Part shown: piece after piece, positions 22,592 through 30,721 of the stretch
How the letters are laid out: each line of letters opens with the position of its first letter
Numbering within the stretch: position 1 is the stretch's first letter
From: Escherichia phage HY03
Length of the DNA stretch: 64,000 bases
Sequence record: NC_031047.1
Strand: one strand, 5' to 3'
Notes under the pieces: generated by a model
The model's input: the letters and a program-made list of their open reading frames with translations, nothing else
Told to the model about the DNA's origin: nothing
The model's database searches: none
Translations under genes and position numbers: made by a program

Positions 22592-22607
22592 CGGCGCCGA
22601 AGCGCCG
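22592..22607 (-). other. GC stem-loop with UUCG loop 3' of the 214-aa ORF
   Basis: CGGCGC-CGAA-GCGCCG; no U-tract on either strand. Confidence 0.4.
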
Positions 22608-22636
22608 TCAAATAATTATGTAATAAGTTCCATGAT

Positions 22637-23281
22637 TTATCCTTGAACGAACTTGTAAGGCATGTTTGCAATATCTATGCAAGACGCAATAATTCCAAGA
22701 GATGATTCTACTTTCTGTTTAACATTTGATGAAACAAATGATGCAAAGTCAACTCTGTCTTCTATTTCAATATCACCTGTCATTGCAACTACTTCACCAG
22801 TTTCCATTAGACGGTCACCGTCATAAATTACTGATTCGGTGAGTTCTTCCGTAGTCATAACTTCAGCTTGAATGAGTTTTGTATTATTAAATGTTGTTCC
22901 GTCATTATTAGAAGCATCAGTTATTTTATTAACTTTGACCATCAATCCACGTGGTAGAATAACTTCAGCTTCTGTTGCTATTCCGAGACTTCCTGGATAT
23001 ACAACATTAACTTTATGAGCTCCATCAATTGCCCATCCTATTTGAACTTTAACGTATTCAGGATTTTCTTTATACGCTCTTATTTCGTTTGGATTAATAG
23101 TTATTCCTTCTTCATTTTTATCAACTGTCAATTCATTACGAGCTTCTGGTTCTAAAAGACCGATACCAGCATGTGTAATTCCAAAACGTCCAAAAATGAT
23201 AGGAGTTAAAGAAGTAGATACAAAATTTCTGAAATAGAACACTTTATTTTTAACTAATGCTTCGTATATAGGAGCAGTCAA
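22637..23281 (-). CDS. hypothetical protein, possibly a 5'-truncated gene remnant at the synteny breakpoint
   Basis: 214-aa ORF whose only start is TTG without RBS; in-frame stop 6 codons upstream; abuts the divergent 116-aa gene. Confidence 0.45.
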   Translation of the reverse strand: MTAPIYEALVKNKVFYFRNFVSTSLTPIIFGRFGITHAGIGLLEPEARNELTVDKNEEGITINPNEIRAYKENPEYVKVQIGWAIDGAHKVNVVYPGSLGIATEAEVILPRGLMVKVNKITDASNNDGTTFNNTKLIQAEVMTTEELTESVIYDGDRLMETGEVVAMTGDIEIEDRVDFASFVSSNVKQKVESSLGIIASCIDIANMPYKFVQG

Positions 23282-23282
23282 T

Positions 23283-23633
23283 ATGAAAGGTAATGTTTAT
23301 TTAGTAGTTCATGATTTAACATTCTATTTTAATCATAATGATACTGTTATTTCTGAACGTGTAATTAATTTGCTTTATCAGCATGCAGATTATGTTTATG
23401 TCGAAAACGAATATGGTCATTGGCAATTTCTCAAAAATCGTTCATTTGGTTTAGATGGTTACGAATATTTTGATCGTAAAGACCTTTTAGATACAATTCC
23501 GTTATCTACACAATATCAAAATCATAAGTCTTTACATAAATGCCGGCTAATTCGAAATGCTGAATCCGCGTATGAAGCAATTGATTTATGGCGTAAACGC
23601 CGTGAACAGATTGATGCTTTAAAAGAATATTAA
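23283..23633 (+). CDS. hypothetical protein
   Basis: 116-aa ORF with AGGAG RBS, immediately upstream of the structured RNA locus. Confidence 0.65.
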   Translation: MKGNVYLVVHDLTFYFNHNDTVISERVINLLYQHADYVYVENEYGHWQFLKNRSFGLDGYEYFDRKDLLDTIPLSTQYQNHKSLHKCRLIRNAESAYEAIDLWRKRREQIDALKEY

Positions 23634-23639
23634 GAAACC

Positions 23640-23940
23640 GGGTCGCTACCGGTAAGTCGTCGGACTGATGTTCCCTGGAGTATAGTTTCCTCCCACAGTT
23701 TTACTGTGTTCTGGCTCTTTACTATTACAGCAGAAACGGCGCACCGAATTATCGATTCGAGGAAATATCTTTGCCATAAGCCGAGTAGCGTTTTTGACGG
23801 AACGTTCGGATATGGTCGAGATATGGCCTTTTAAAAATATTGAGTAGCGTCAACTACTTAATAACCGGGTTCAAATCCCGGCGTTTCGTACAAACACTTG
23901 CCTTAGCAGGTGGAACCCCGACAAGGTTGCCGCAAGGCTT
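23640..23940 (+). ncRNA. structured non-coding RNA locus (tRNA-cluster remnant or stable small RNA); contains a tRNA-like T-arm
   Basis: 300 nt without ORF, GC-richer than flanks, several hairpins, canonical T-arm CCGGG-TTCAAAT-CCCGG at 23865-23881, GNRA-capped helices. Confidence 0.4.
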
Positions 23941-23969
23941 AGCCCTGACCGAAAGGTTGGGGCTTTTTA
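23941..23969 (+). terminator. intrinsic terminator: 10-bp stem, GAAA loop, U5 tail
   Basis: AGCCCTGACC-GAAA-GGTTGGGGCT followed by TTTTT. Confidence 0.8.
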
Positions 23970-24043
23970 GTTTGAATCACTCAGAGAATGCTGTTACGGA
24001 TAATAAATAATTAATAACCAATAAATTATTTCAAGGATTTTAA

Positions 24044-24607
24044 ATGAAAACCTATGCCGAATTTTTAACTGAAGCAGCAAAATTACCATCTGAAGCAGAT
24101 CTTACTAAAGTATTCTTCCACTTGGACCCAAAAGACCGGGGCGATTTTCTTAAGTGGAAAGCTAAAGCTATTGAAATGTATAACATCGATAACAGTTCTT
24201 TTACGATGAGCCAAGAAAATAGTTTCAATAAAGCATTTTTCAAAATTTCTAAGAAATTGGCATCTGGCGCTCAGGTTTCTAAATCTGCATTAGCTACTCC
24301 TGAACGTGCACCTGTTAAAATTTCTAAGAATATGTTTGACACTAAAAAATATGTCAATGCTTTGAATAAAGCTCTTGATGCATTGGATGATGCAAAGAAG
24401 GCAGCCCGCGATCTTCAAGACGTGTATACCGATTTTGATCGTAAAACTAAAGGTTCTATTTCAAATAGCGAACGCAATAGTGTAAGTGTTTATTCTGATA
24501 GCCTTGATGTTCTTGGCGATGCATATACTGAAATTAAAAATCGTATTAACACCGCATCTAAGCTAAAAGCTGCTGCAGAAGCTATAATAACTAAACTAGG
24601 TAAATAA
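24044..24607 (+). CDS. internal protein-like capsid-targeted protein (N-terminal CTS MKTYAEFLTEA)
   Basis: 187-aa ORF beginning with the T4 IP capsid-targeting sequence, predicted gp21 cleavage after LTEA. Confidence 0.8.
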   Translation: MKTYAEFLTEAAKLPSEADLTKVFFHLDPKDRGDFLKWKAKAIEMYNIDNSSFTMSQENSFNKAFFKISKKLASGAQVSKSALATPERAPVKISKNMFDTKKYVNALNKALDALDDAKKAARDLQDVYTDFDRKTKGSISNSERNSVSVYSDSLDVLGDAYTEIKNRINTASKLKAAAEAIITKLGK

Positions 24608-24615
24608 TTTTAAAT

Positions 24616-24640
24616 CCCTATCTAAATGATAGGGCTTTTT
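24616..24640 (+). terminator. stem-loop CCCTATC-TAAAT-GATAGGG with T-run
   Basis: 7-bp stem then CTTTTT. Confidence 0.6.
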
Positions 24641-24762
24641 GGTATCTAGGCCTTTCCGGGCCTCTCTAGGCATCATTTAGTTTATATCCTTTATAATATA
24701 TTATCCTACCTTTTAATTGCCCCTCCCCGCCCTAAAATTCCCTAAAAATTTTTCACAAAACT

Positions 24763-24792
24763 GTTTACATCCCTGTTCTTCTATGGTACTAT
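24763..24792 (+). promoter_or_regulatory. T4-type early promoter (GTTTAC, 18 nt, TACTAT) with A/T-rich UP region
   Basis: Part of the repeated promoter-leader cassette family. Confidence 0.7.
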
Positions 24793-24835
24793 ATCAATAT
24801 CAACTACTGATACAGAAAACAACTTGGAGAATAAA

Positions 24836-25099
24836 ATGGATAATTACGGTGAACTGTTCAACTTCTTTATGAAATGTGTTTCAGAAGATTTCGGTCGTAC
24901 AGTGAATGATATTAAAGTTATCGGTCCTGATCATCCGATGTTTGAAACTTACGCAGTAATGGGTAATGAAGATGGTCAGTGGTATACTGTAAAGGTTGTG
25001 ATTAACATGTTCACTGCTGAAGGTTATGTTAAACTGTCTTCTAAAGTTTACCATGATAACGATGAAATCGCAGAAGAATATTTCAATAATATGAAATAA
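24836..25099 (+). CDS. hypothetical protein
   Basis: 87 aa from ATG with GGAGA RBS (ORF track starts at upstream TTG). Confidence 0.65.
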   Translation: MDNYGELFNFFMKCVSEDFGRTVNDIKVIGPDHPMFETYAVMGNEDGQWYTVKVVINMFTAEGYVKLSSKVYHDNDEIAEEYFNNMK

Positions 25100-25167
25100 T
25101 TGTGTACAAACACCAAGGACGGTGTTATTATAGACTTATCAAAACAAATACAGAAACGGAGAAATAA

Positions 25168-25332
25168 ATGACTACTTTAATTATTTGGTTTGACGAAAAT
25201 GAAGAAACATACTGCGTGAACATTGGCGAAAGCCCAATGCCAGAATTTGAATCTTCGGATAAAAACTCGGTTGTATCTTGGGCTGAAGGTTATAAAGCAG
25301 CAAAAGGCGATGTTGAAATAGTTTACAAATAA
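25168..25332 (+). CDS. small acidic hypothetical protein (54 aa)
   Basis: ATG with GGAG RBS at 7-nt spacing; below the ORF track length cutoff. Confidence 0.45.
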   Translation: MTTLIIWFDENEETYCVNIGESPMPEFESSDKNSVVSWAEGYKAAKGDVEIVYK

Positions 25333-25375
25333 TACTCTTATGGATTTTAAATCTTAATTAACCTAAGGAAATACT

Positions 25376-25969
25376 ATGAACACACTGAAGAAAATTGTTG
25401 AGTTTATTCGCACTAAACTTGGTTCTGCTATGGCTAAAAATTTATCCGTTGAAGAACAGTATACTGCTGCGGCAGCAAAACTACTTGATAAGATTAAAGA
25501 TCTAAAAACTGCTTCTGTTAAATCTATTAATGAAGAAAAGCGTATTCGTGAACTTATTGTCGAAAAGAATAAGCAGGCCGAATCAAAAGAGCGTGAAATT
25601 CGCAAGCTTCTTTCTGAAGGTCAAGATGTAACAATGCATGCTAAACTTGGTTTGCTATATCGTCGAACAGCTGAACAGTTGACTACTAAAGCTGATGGTT
25701 ATGCTGAAATGCGAATTGAAATCGCCAAGAAAGTAGTTGAGTTAGATGATGCTCGCCAAGAACTTGCAGTTAAATTGGAATATATCCGTGAAACTCGTGC
25801 AGCAAATGCCCTTGGAATTAGTACTGCTGATGATGTAGTTGAAATTGCAGCGCTGACTAAGGTTGATATTGAAGATACTCTTGCTCGAGTTGAAACCTTT
25901 AATGGTAATATTTCTGGGGTTGAAACTACCTCTGCCGATGTTCAGGAATACATTAATTCTCTGAAATAA
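25376..25969 (+). CDS. coiled-coil protein, tentatively PspA/IM30 (Vipp1)-like
   Basis: 197-aa all-helical heptad-rich protein whose pattern resembles PspA; assignment from memory only. Confidence 0.5.
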
Positions 25970-27324: not shown

Positions 27325-27809
27325 TTTTAAAAACTCGCTGGTATGATTTAGATGATGGGGATGATGGCATTTCAGTTGATAGAGTTGATTGGAATGGTTG
27401 TTCCGAAGATACAAAGAAACGATTAATTAGGGAGTTTAGAATGGGATATCAAGCAGCTAAACCATTTACTGTAACAGATGATAAATTCGTGTGTATTCAA
27501 AATGGTCGCGCTAAGTTAACGAATGCCGATTGGTTCACAGATAAGAAGGTTATTCTGTGGTATATCATTAGTCTTCCTATATCATCGTTCGTATTTTACT
27601 TTTTTATAAAAAATCCAATGGACAGAATAGGAGATTGGGTTCTTTTAACTATACTTGTTAATATTTTTACAGCAGCAGTATTATCAGGAATATGGCGTAT
27701 GTTCATTGAAATGCCATGGCGTTTACGCAGACAGCAAAAGATTTTTGATGAAAAGAAATATGCTCAAAATTTAAATAACTTTATCACTGAATGCAGGAAA
27801 TTAAAATGA
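27321..27809 (+). CDS. small membrane protein, paralog family
   Basis: 162 aa; TM segments; C-terminus NNFITECRKLK; ATGA overlap with previous gene. Confidence 0.65.
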   Translation: MILKTRWYDLDDGDDGISVDRVDWNGCSEDTKKRLIREFRMGYQAAKPFTVTDDKFVCIQNGRAKLTNADWFTDKKVILWYIISLPISSFVFYFFIKNPMDRIGDWVLLTILVNIFTAAVLSGIWRMFIEMPWRLRRQQKIFDEKKYAQNLNNFITECRKLK

Positions 27810-28246
27810 AAACATTATCAGCTGGTATTATCTTCATGACAGAAGATAAAGATTTATTTATGGGTCGGGTTACTGGTTCTCGTAAGCCTGGAATGATGGC
27901 ACATCGCTGGGATATTCCAAAGGGACGTGTAGAAAGTTCTGATTTGAATGCACTGGAAGCTGCAAAAAGAGAATGCTTAGAAGAGACCGGTTTTAGCAAT
28001 TATAATCCAGACCTTCTAGAAGACCTAGGTGTATTTAAATATTCTAGTAATAAAGACTTACAGTTATTTTATTATACGATTCCAGTAGAGCATGAGATGT
28101 TTAGAAATTGCCATTGTGAGTCTTATTTTGAAAATAAAGATGGTGTTATGATTCCAGAGATGGACGCTTTTGCTCTTATTCCTCGTACTCAGTGGCAATA
28201 TGTGATGGGTCCTTCACTTTACCGAATAATGAACAACCTCTTTTAA
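27791..28246 (+). CDS. nudE: Nudix hydrolase NudE (e.1)
   Basis: 151 aa; Nudix box GRVESSDLNALEAAKRECLEETGF. Confidence 0.85.
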   Translation: MQEIKMKTLSAGIIFMTEDKDLFMGRVTGSRKPGMMAHRWDIPKGRVESSDLNALEAAKRECLEETGFSNYNPDLLEDLGVFKYSSNKDLQLFYYTIPVEHEMFRNCHCESYFENKDGVMIPEMDAFALIPRTQWQYVMGPSLYRIMNNLF

Positions 28247-28777
<531 letters not shown>

Positions 28778-28870: not shown

Positions 28871-29344
28871 ATGAAAACATATCAAGAATTTATTACTGAA
28901 GCAGCTATTAATTCTCAAATTATTGCTGAATCTTTTACTGATCTTTTGAAATTTAAAAAAGGACAGAAAATCACTGCTGTATTGGATGATGGTACAGAAG
29001 TTGAGATGGATGTACAGGGATATAATTATGCAGTAGATGGAAAACTGTATAATAAATCTCATGCTAAATTTGATTCATTTGACGACTTTGTTAATACAGT
29101 TGAAGATGAAAAAACTCGTCGATCCATTGCAACTGGTGATGCTAAGGTTCTTATGGCACATGGTCATGAACGCATTCGCGCTAAACAGAATAAAATGGGT
29201 GAAGATAATTTTGCATTAGTTGGTTATCAATCTGGTAAGCAAACTTATGGCTATCAGCGTACTGCTACCATGTATAATAAAAATGGTAAAATCGCTTTCG
29301 TGAATAGTAAAGGTTCTATTCAGTACGTTAAATCGTTCAAATAA
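28871..29344 (+). CDS. internal protein-like capsid-targeted protein (CTS MKTYQEFITEA)
   Basis: 157 aa with canonical IP capsid-targeting sequence. Confidence 0.8.
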   Translation: MKTYQEFITEAAINSQIIAESFTDLLKFKKGQKITAVLDDGTEVEMDVQGYNYAVDGKLYNKSHAKFDSFDDFVNTVEDEKTRRSIATGDAKVLMAHGHERIRAKQNKMGEDNFALVGYQSGKQTYGYQRTATMYNKNGKIAFVNSKGSIQYVKSFK

Positions 29345-29437
29345 TATGGGAACAACCTGGACCTCATGATTCTGTGAGGGATTCCCGCCAACCTGTAATA
29401 AGGTCGAGCCCAAGTGCGGTAATGGGTAAATACAGAA

Positions 29438-30025
29438 ATGGACAATTCATGCGCCATGGAATGGCCCAAACCTAGAGAGAACAAAATGAGAACATTTTTA
29501 ACTGGTCCTTATCTATCCCTGATGAATGCTTTTACACACCATTCTGATGCTAGAGTAGAAGAAATTTGTAAAAACGATTATATCCCGCCATTTGAAGACT
29601 TACTTAAGCAGTATTGCACACTTCGACTAGATGGTGGACGTCAATCCGGTAAATCAACTGCAGTAACTAATTTTGCCGCTAATTGGTTGTATGACGGTGG
29701 AACAGTTATTGTTCTTTCTAATACTTCAGCTTACGCTAAAATTTCTGCAAATAGCATCAAAAAGGAATTTTTGCGTTATTCTAATGATGATATACGTTTT
29801 CGTTTATTTACTGATTCTGTGCGCAGTTTTATCGGTAATAAAGGAAGCAAGTTCAGAGGTTTAAAGCTTTCGCGAATTTTGTATATAATTGATGAGCCTG
29901 TCAAATCTCCTGATATGGATAAGATTTATAGTGTCCATATTGACACTGTACACTGCTGCTGTAATATTAAATGTTGTATTGGTGGTATTACTCGTCCACA
30001 GTTTTTCGTAATCGGAATGCAATGA
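29438..30025 (+). CDS. hypothetical P-loop protein at the position where T4 has denV
   Basis: Walker A-like GGRQSGKST; start ambiguous (ATG at 29438, 29456 or 29486); no similarity to endonuclease V as recalled. Confidence 0.55.
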   Translation: MDNSCAMEWPKPRENKMRTFLTGPYLSLMNAFTHHSDARVEEICKNDYIPPFEDLLKQYCTLRLDGGRQSGKSTAVTNFAANWLYDGGTVIVLSNTSAYAKISANSIKKEFLRYSNDDIRFRLFTDSVRSFIGNKGSKFRGLKLSRILYIIDEPVKSPDMDKIYSVHIDTVHCCCNIKCCIGGITRPQFFVIGMQ

Positions 30026-30351
30026 TGACAGACACTCAGCTTTTCGAATATCTTTATTTTTCGCCAAAAACTATTAAAAATAAATTAGTGAATCATTTTG
30101 AAATTTTGGCAAATAACAACGTCTTGAGCGAATTTTATCCTAAGCAATACAAATTACAAAAAGGCGTATTCAAAGGATGCAGAGTTTTGTGTACTGCTCC
30201 TAATGCACGGCTAATGAATAAAATTCCATATTTTACCATGGAATTTATTGATGGGCCTTTTAAAGGACTAATCACCCAAAGTTTAATGGCATATGATTCT
30301 GAGCCATTTTTAATTAAAGAACAATCTTGGATAAATTTATTTTCTAATTGA
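30025..30351 (+). CDS. hypothetical protein
   Basis: 108 aa from ATG overlapping the upstream stop (ATGA). Confidence 0.55.
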
Positions 30352-30358
30352 GGTTTAT

Positions 30359-30721
30359 ATGAAAGCATATCAAATTCTTGAAGGCACACATAAAGGTACT
30401 ATTTATTTTGAAGATGGTATTCAAGCACGAATTATCGTTTCTAAAACCTTTAAAGAGGACTCTTTTGTAGACCCAGAAATTTTCTACGGTTTGCATGCCC
30501 GTGAAATTGAAATTGAGCAACAGCCTACAGTTAAAATTGAAGGTGGTCAACACCTGAACGTTAACGTTCTGCGTCGTGAAACTCTGGAAGATGCAGTTAA
30601 GCATCCGGAAAAATATCCGCAGCTGACCATCCGTGTATCCGGTTATGCAGTTCGCTTTAACTCTCTGACTCCGGAACAGCAGCGCGACGTTATCGCTCGT
30701 ACCTTCACCGAGAGTTTGTAA
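30359..30721 (+). CDS. autonomous glycyl-radical cofactor (GrcA/YfiD-like)
   Basis: C-terminal 60 aa nearly identical to E. coli GrcA glycyl radical domain ([39 protein letters not shown]); T4 encodes a known homolog (Y06I). Confidence 0.9.

Follow-up and report, generated by a model that had tools for sequence, protein, structure and literature searches.

Comparative evidence for a conserved structured RNA ahead of vs.8 in the T2-type internal-protein locus of T4-like phages

In phage T4, the segment downstream of the lysozyme gene e carries ipIII, ipII and denV, the gene for endonuclease V. What stands in their place in Escherichia phage HY03, a T4-like phage (Tequatrovirus), and what does the difference mean? 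The question is raised by a stretch of 64,000 nucleotides of this phage (NC_031047.1; hereafter the window), in which e is followed by a gene for a protein with a capsid targeting sequence (CTS) and then by an open reading frame (ORF) for a P-loop protein. A preliminary description of positions 28871-30025 had read this as the replacement of a DNA-repair gene by an uncharacterised NTPase, and had remarked on the ambiguous start and unusual leader of the P-loop ORF. As judged by comparison with related phages, the locus is the known T2-type allele of the T-even internal-protein (IP) cassette locus and the P-loop ORF is the orthologue of T4 vs.8. The leader, in turn, is shown by comparative sequence analysis to be a non-coding, structured and widely conserved RNA. 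This RNA is the part worth following, since it is deeply conserved, present in more than 1,000 sequenced phages, absent from Rfam and located beside tRNA genes in unrelated phages.

The gene order in the window, on the plus strand, is nudE, e, ip4, vs.8, vs.7, vs.6. At the same position T4 has e, ipIII, ipII, denV, vs.8, vs.7, vs.6, so that the T4 genes named in the preliminary description are indeed among those found there. In tblastn searches with T4 proteins, residues 26-219 of T4 Vs.8 matched window positions 29438-30022 at 91% identity, and T4 ipIII and ipII matched solely via their N-terminal targeting sequences. T4 DenV had no match in the 64-kb window (best E = 3.8), which agrees with the earlier statement that, unlike in T4, the locus is devoid of denV; denV and ipIII were likewise not found in the complete genome (170,727 bp) of the closest relative, ELT1. 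The T4 ipIII-ipII-denV block of about 1.5 kb is swapped here for the single gene ip4 (0.5 kb), and the hyperplastic character ascribed to this internal-protein region is borne out. In the synteny comparison that had been proposed with T2 and RB phages, the 2.6 kb around the locus proved collinear, at 97-99% identity, with ELT1, SG1, RB27, RB33, RB32, RB14, T2 and AR1, and the ip4 arrangement is already annotated in T2, RB14, RB32, RB27 and AR1. Repoila et al. are reported to have also described, in 1994, the variability of T-even IP genes. That IP genes vary among T-even phages is established (PMC9026906, PMC4122927).

We therefore give next to no credence to the view that the phage gained an uncharacterised NTPase in exchange for denV, a repair gene. 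It is true that denV is missing and that the P-loop gene comes next after the IP gene; however, in T4 the same gene directly follows denV, a comparison that already refutes the idea, and among 35 viral-contig loci there are 10 in which denV immediately precedes this RNA and vs.8, an order that recurs in three later metagenome loci. The preliminary description had itself named two findings that would speak against its reading. One of them was made, as the 195-residue protein is the product of a T4 vs gene (the vs.8 orthologue, 91%); the other, a denV gene elsewhere, was made neither in the window nor in ELT1. Since no denV and thus no pyrimidine-dimer glycosylase is encoded, a T2-like sensitivity to ultraviolet (UV) light is expected; the higher UV sensitivity of T2 compared to T4 is the classical v-gene difference. 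The difference in gene order is routine: it accounts for this expected sensitivity and for a different set of injected internal proteins, and for no more.

What, then, is the leader of vs.8? The ambiguity of the start and the unusual leader are real: the GC content is 47% over 29350-29449 compared to about 30-35% nearby. The spacer between the ip4 and vs.8 ORFs is non-coding and 141 nt long. Homology between T4, T2, RB32 and the window starts exactly with the first base of the RNA, at GGGAACAACC, which lies 3 nt past the ip4 stop in the window and, in T4, 1 nt past the denV stop; it extends as far as the vs.8 start. In 48 related loci the spacer can still be recognised, though Vs.8 identity goes down to 33-45%, and the gene upstream of the RNA across these 48 loci is denV or one of many different CTS proteins.

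One might suppose that the leader encodes protein, be it an N-terminal extension of Vs.8 (219 residues in T4, the 195-residue ORF here) or a small upstream ORF. Indeed, T4 is in frame and open through the entire element, and the annotations of RB32 and RB14 use upstream starts. However, the window reads the leader in another frame than T4, owing to a length difference of 8 nt immediately before the start codon, and in 19 of 49 distinct leaders the open in-frame stretch above the conserved Met amounts to a mere 0-4 codons before a stop is met. Stops are found in all three frames in nearly all of these 49 leaders, T4 alone being open throughout. Moreover, the homologues begin at M1, with ELT1 annotated at 179 residues, and the substitutions in the leader are paired and compensatory, as detailed below. 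We thus hold a coding leader to be extremely improbable. The T4 vs.8 annotation (219 residues, start 64912) reads through the RNA, the conserved start lying 40 codons further in, and is thereby corrected. The same applies to the 195-residue ORF of the preliminary description: the mechanical ORF is present (29438-30025, plus strand) and holds the Walker A sequence LDGGRQSGKST, but its start is an artefact of ORF calling, the ATG at 29438 being the 5' strand of an RNA helix (P6).

The RNA comprises about 123 nt (29348-29470) and folds into five helices including a pseudoknot, followed by two GGA-bearing hairpins. Its helices were derived by hand from sequence variation and then tested. The 5' domain (29348..29436, plus strand), which is defined by the covariance model and the covariation counts given below, starts with P1 (29348-52 with 29382-86). 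The loop closed by P1 contains the 5' strand of the pseudoknot (29356-59), whose 3' strand (29433-36) follows after P3, and a variable hairpin, P2 (29362-66 with 29375-79). P3 (29387-89 with 29425-27) encloses P4 (29391-94 with 29401-04), which carries the hexaloop GUAAUA, and P5, which together with the invariant GGUCGAGCC...GUGCGGUAA occupies 29402-29422. The sequence GGUCGAGCC-N3-GUGCGGUAA forms the almost invariant core of the 5' domain. The 3' domain (29438..29468, plus strand), identified by compensatory changes, consists of the hairpin P6 (29438-50), which carries a GGA, and the hairpin P7 (29453-65, GCCAUGGAAUGGC), in which GGA is placed in the loop, followed by CCC.

This structure rests on sequence variation between phages. 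A covariance model (R1) built from 18 type-B sequences yields a single match in the window, at 29348-29470 (86.6 bits, E = 2.9e-24), one in the whole ELT1 genome and one in T4 (64,816-64,938; L001 3317-3439, minus strand), and 52 matches at E below 1e-19. In the alignment of these 52 matches, 88.5% of the cells are paired, compared to 24-44% when the partners are slid against each other, and double-sided changes are seen in 24 of 39 pairs. The pseudoknot was left out of R1, so that this alignment is not fitted to it; it nevertheless covaries at all four of its pairs. A second alignment of the core, made by hand from 25 lineages with each row checked verbatim against its locus, was built by choosing pairing strands and thus favours structure; here 94.8% of the cells are paired (23-51% when slid), double changes occur in 18 of 22 core pairs, with a covariation score of 0.59 (0.13 or less when slid). 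For P1 the pairs GGGAA/UUCCC, GGGAG/CUCCC, AAAGG/CCUUU, AAAGA/UCUUU, GAAUG/CAUUC and GAGUG/CACUC exemplify the changes, and for the pseudoknot CCUG/CAGG, CCG/CGG, CGC/GCG, CAC/GUG, CUCGA/UCGAG, CUCCGG/CCGGAG, AGCA/UGCU and AACCA/UGGUU. In the 3' domain, compensatory changes are found at four of four pairs of P6 and at two of four pairs of P7. G.U pairs outnumber A.C pairs by 21 to 3, an excess which indicates that the plus strand, i.e. the mRNA-sense strand, folds. RNAalifold, applied to a MAFFT alignment, recovers part of the structure only.

Searches of Rfam 15 returned no match for the window and 12 T4-like loci at E up to 1, and none over the motif for five non-T4 loci at E up to 10. To judge from Rfam 15 and the searchable literature, this RNA family is undescribed. 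The only literature match to the sequence strings, an occurrence of GUGCGGUAA in the P18 GNRA hairpin of Thermotoga RNase P, was rejected as a chance match to an unrelated RNA. A reading of the fold as a kink-turn was also discarded, the defining features being missing.

How widely is the element distributed, and does it travel as a unit? A blastn search with the 123-nt element retrieved 1,115 phage records, mostly from T4-like phages of Escherichia, Shigella, Klebsiella, Enterobacter, Yersinia, Salmonella and Citrobacter; among T4-like phages its place in the genome is fixed. The 5' domain alone is present in Vequintavirus (rV5-like; phage Alma), with 119 records showing a near full-length match, as well as in a 45-kb coliphage (Ivi), in the Pseudomonas Flaumdravirus KIL4 and in four further viral contigs. 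R1, which derives from T4-like sequences, detects all of these non-T4 copies with E between 1e-6 and 1e-13. In the non-T4 phages examined, no vs.8 homologue is located near the RNA, and a search for a conserved protein partner beside the motif found none. Seven of nine non-T4 loci have tRNA genes close by on the same strand, at a distance of 0.3-0.8 kb in the six that were measured. The strict core pattern gave no match in 185,579 bacterial and archaeal genomes. T4 rnaC and rnaD were considered as homologues and dismissed, as R1 finds nothing there.

The two domains are also rearranged among T4-like loci. Two 5' domains stand in tandem before a single 3' domain in four loci (L013, L024, L035 and L050; spacers of 250-282 nt), and the tandem copies differ in subtype, one having a full P2 and the other a mini P2. 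Four other loci (L020-L022 and L032, at about 1924-2480) contain a complete element, an IP gene, a second copy of the 3' hairpins only and then vs.8, a layout suggestive of cassette insertion through recombination inside the element. The P7 hairpin (GCCAWGGAAYGGC) is located less than 50 nt upstream of a start codon, of either vs.8 or an IP gene, in all 81 of its 81 occurrences. At a distant vs.8 homologue (L036) the element is absent. Three side observations concern single copies. A P7-like hairpin precedes another IP gene in L031 (at 1541). An unrelated viral contig (L104) contains an ORF resembling HNH-type homing endonucleases (178 residues, 2195-2731) 230 nt downstream of the motif. Finally, the record MG065658.1 (H146), named 'Campylobacter phage C7' (134.9 kb), has an rV5-type copy with 94% identity to that of coliphage Alma; the host label of this record may be wrong.

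Our best explanation, which we consider probable though far from certain, combines the T2-type allele with an RNA module that binds a factor or ligand and serves as a cis-acting leader. Hereby, the RNA would reside in the ip4-vs.8 spacer of a polycistronic transcript, and its 5' domain would act as a module in its own right, binding a conserved factor of the cell or a small ligand. Autonomy is suggested because the domain occurs without vs.8 in unrelated phages and as tandem copies in some T4-like phages. In T4-like phages, the 5' domain would be coupled to the 3' GGA hairpins just ahead of the Shine-Dalgarno sequence and the AUG, and this coupling may set translation, processing or stability of the vs.8 message. 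By its sequence conservation, the RNA could at the same time provide the right-hand homology arm for swaps of IP/denV cassettes: the cassette is flanked by gene e on the left and the structured RNA on the right, with ip4 replacing ipIII-ipII-denV between them. The element marks where these cassettes exchange. More tentatively, and with somewhat less than even confidence, we propose that the 5' domain represents an undescribed class of functional RNA common to unrelated virulent phages, be it a riboswitch aptamer, a ribozyme or a decoy for a conserved host or defence factor linked to tRNA biology. If so, this class was hidden in the mis-extended protein annotation of the most-studied phage.

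Several observations weigh against the cis-acting leader. Folded as a single sequence, the window element shows no unusual stability (z = +0.65), so that the evidence for the structure is comparative and not thermodynamic, and the preference for structure built into the hand alignment is offset only partly by the pseudoknot of the 52-match alignment and by the slid controls. The AlphaFold2 model of Ip4, the other component of the allele, is unusable (pLDDT, the predicted local distance difference test, of 50). In some other phages no ORF directly follows the 5' domain, which fits a free-standing RNA equally well or better. Furthermore, T2 keeps the RNA beside a frameshifted vs.8, and the value of the RNA can thus not lie only in controlling vs.8. 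The last two points lead to the main rival, in which the 5' domain is a free-standing, stable small RNA that is cut from the polycistronic transcript, like the RNAs of tRNA clusters, and acts in trans as a decoy, sponge or cofactor. Its target would be a conserved host or defence component, and its position before vs.8 would be incidental or a mere cassette boundary. Such an RNA would agree with the location within or beside same-strand tRNA clusters in non-T4 phages, often with no ORF directly downstream, with the intrinsic terminator after the element in one locus (L102), with the tandem copies in some T4-like phages, with the retention of the element beside the T2 vs.8 pseudogene and with a core that is invariant across phages of Enterobacteria and Pseudomonas. 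In T4-like phages, however, the 3' hairpins and a start codon always follow within about 50 nt, and neither a promoter nor a terminator of its own is seen in the window. We regard the trans-acting RNA as a serious but rather unlikely alternative.

A ribozyme that cleaves itself, or some other site of processing at which the highly expressed IP/denV message would be parted from vs.8, is less likely than the trans-acting RNA, and we deem it improbable. The idea draws on the order of the helices (P1 5', pseudoknot 5', hairpin, P1 3', domain, pseudoknot 3'), which is that of the nested double-pseudoknot of hepatitis delta virus (HDV)-like ribozymes, on P1 beginning 1-4 nt after the upstream stop codon and on the element always being intercistronic or in a tRNA cluster. 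Yet none of the Rfam ribozyme models matches, only 7 unpaired nt remain of the hairpin equivalent to HDV P3/L3 in two loci (L099 and L100), the joining strand that should carry the catalytic C is absent in phage Alma (J4/2 = 0 nt), and conservation is the reverse of that in HDV, the P4-like domain being the invariant part here. Of the features by which an HDV-like ribozyme is recognised, P1.1 is missing from the element, the counterpart of the 3-bp P3 with L3 varies or is absent, and the J4/2 strand with the catalytic C may be lacking. That the element is conserved purely as DNA, to serve cassette exchange as a hotspot of recombination or a site of protein binding, with no RNA function, is more improbable still. 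The element does lie exactly at the boundary of the variable segment, and portions of it are present twice, flanking an inserted IP gene (L020, L022 and L032); but a homology arm needs neither compensatory changes nor a pseudoknot nor an excess of G.U over A.C pairs, and the core is common to unrelated phages without IP cassettes. Together with the coding leader, we consider this reading to be largely excluded. T4 genetics can test the function of the RNA directly, which could reveal a new regulatory or counter-defence RNA.

The gene behind the leader, vs.8 (29486..30025, plus strand), has a weak Shine-Dalgarno sequence, GAGAG, at 29475..29479 (plus strand, as read from the sequence), 6 nt 5' of its start. 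From the conserved start ATG at 29486 it encodes 179 residues, as in the ELT1 annotation, and M1 is invariant in 18 homologues that are 39-87% identical. The protein matches PHROG 1488 with E = 5e-79, residues 3-179 aligning with positions 2-177 of a profile of 177 positions. Walker A (GGRQSGKST) is encoded at 29633-29659 and Walker B (hhhhDE; LYIIDEP) at 29876-29896; DGGRQSGK and IIDEP are invariant. Thus, both a Walker A of the form GxxxxGK[ST] and a Walker B are placed on a RecA-like alpha/beta core, as in P-loop NTPases of the ASCE (additional strand catalytic E), RecA-like type. Vs.8 is predicted to be a single RecA-like ATPase domain of 179 residues, a stand-alone and probably oligomeric P-loop ATPase. 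An assignment to the superfamily 2 helicases or DEAD-box proteins was rejected, since these require two tandem RecA-like domains and Vs.8 has one domain of 179 residues (homologues, 160-185). Terminase large subunits combine an N-terminal ATPase with a C-terminal RNase H-like nuclease, an architecture not found in Vs.8, and a homologue of T4 endonuclease V (DenV) was found neither in the window nor in the ELT1 genome. The family is tiny, with 50 clusters among 1.84 billion representatives, nearly all of 160-185 residues. Many large phages have proteins that resemble it in structure and are of similar size, all of them uncharacterised. The T4 block vs.3-denV, which includes vs.8, can be deleted (PMC9825161), and Vs.8 is dispensable in the laboratory. 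In the T2 record (NC_054931; L002 2780-3320) vs.8 is a pseudogene with two frameshifts that is spread over three frames, and the RNA upstream of it is intact.

The gene in front of the leader is ip4 (28871..29344, plus strand), which encodes the internal head protein IpIV of 157 residues. It is the CTS-bearing ORF of the preliminary description, which was correctly located and begins with MKTYQEFITEA. The CTS is defined as the first 10 residues (PMC9026906) and is encoded here by the first 10 codons (28871-28900, MKTYQEFITE), in agreement with the pattern MKTYxEF(I/L)xE and including the gp21 processing residues I8 and E10. Ip4 is a full-length member of Pfam DUF7412 (E = 6e-96) and matches PHROG 3155, 'internal virion protein', over its full length (E = 6e-102); the same gene is annotated Ip4/ipIV in T2, RB32, RB14 and AR1. 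Searches of NCBIfam and PADLOC with Ip4, vs.8 and vs.7 gave sub-threshold noise only, and a profile search of PDB sequences gave E of 0.05 or worse. Ip4 would be made with its 10-residue CTS, enter the prohead, undergo trimming by the gp21 protease and be injected along with the DNA. IPIII is an anti-defence factor (PMC9391042), and by analogy with IPI and IPIII, Ip4 probably disarms a host defence. Another CTS-bearing protein, the first of the window, is encoded by an ORF of 187 residues at 24044-24607; it starts with MKTYAEFLTEAA and differs from Ip4, ipII and ipIII.

The neighbouring genes are close to those of T4. nudE (27791-28246, plus strand) and e show 96-97% identity to T4 by tblastn. 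The latter (28283..28777, plus strand), which codes for the T4 lysozyme (97% identity to T4 e over 164 residues), is the left conserved flank of the variable cassette. vs.7 (30022..30351, plus strand; 109 residues, PHROG 2049) is 98% identical to T4 vs.7, and its start overlaps the vs.8 stop in ATGA. vs.6 (30359..30721, plus strand; 98% to T4 vs.6) encodes a GrcA-like autonomous glycyl radical cofactor (Pfam Gly_radical, E = 2.5e-18); this GrcA/YfiD-like identity applies to T4 as well. ARAGORN detects no tRNA gene in the window (1-64000); the tRNA cluster of T4 is located between the e.x genes and ipI. The window as a whole is not collinear with its relatives. A breakpoint is found at about 23281 (22600-25500), where the alt ORF is cut to its last 214 residues. 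Window 3-23280 corresponds to ELT1 107180-129657 (gp18 to gp54 and the alt C-terminus), window 25343-64000 to ELT1 74399-34758 in reverse, and to the right of the breakpoint the identity with phage G4498 is 99.6%. The junction is spanned by none of 759 phage records; the breakpoint could reflect a genuine inversion, chimeric assembly or construction of the window.

With regard to known systems, the locus is closest to the Ip4 allele of the T2/RB32/RB14 type, with which it shares the order e-ip4-vs.8-vs.7-vs.6 and 97-99% DNA identity; vs.8 is frameshifted in the T2 record and intact in the window, and otherwise nothing substantial sets them apart. T4 vs.8 (NP_049732, PHROG 1488) is 91% identical and has the vs.7/vs.6 neighbours and the upstream RNA in common with the gene described here, whereas its annotation as 219 residues, read through the RNA, contrasts with the conserved protein of 179. 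For the RNA, a precedent at the level of position is the pseudoknot of the T4 gene 32 mRNA, a phage translational operator. Both are conserved pseudoknots in a T-even 5' leader upstream of a ribosome-binding site, but the element is of greater size, contains a three-way junction, is also found beyond T4-like phages and shows no sequence relation to this or other phage translational operators. PeSL cassettes (PMC4122927) are similar in that a conserved non-coding element stands at the borders of variable genes and is partly duplicated around inserted ones. They consist, however, of a sigma-70-like promoter and a simple stem-loop, while the element has multiple covarying helices and a pseudoknot, and no promoter-like site of the PeSL type (TTTACW-N17-TAYWAT) is present within 29345-29485.

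HDV-like ribozymes resemble the element in the strand order of the nested double-pseudoknot and in their intercistronic or tRNA-linked place in phages; they differ from it in that the element has no P1.1, its L3 equivalent is dispensable, its invariant part is a peripheral domain and it matches no Rfam model. T4 rnaC and rnaD are likewise phage-encoded structured RNAs linked to tRNA genes, without being homologous to it. Sites of CsrA/RsmA are characterised by A(N)GGA in the loop of a short hairpin. In this respect, P7 presents CA(A/U/C)GGAA in the loop of a 4-bp hairpin, a second GGA is carried by P6, and a third is seen in several Shine-Dalgarno regions; this is a candidate site only, and the motif is short and could serve another protein. 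As for riboswitches, finally, what is seen in the RNA is an aptamer-like architecture and the occurrence of tandem copies.

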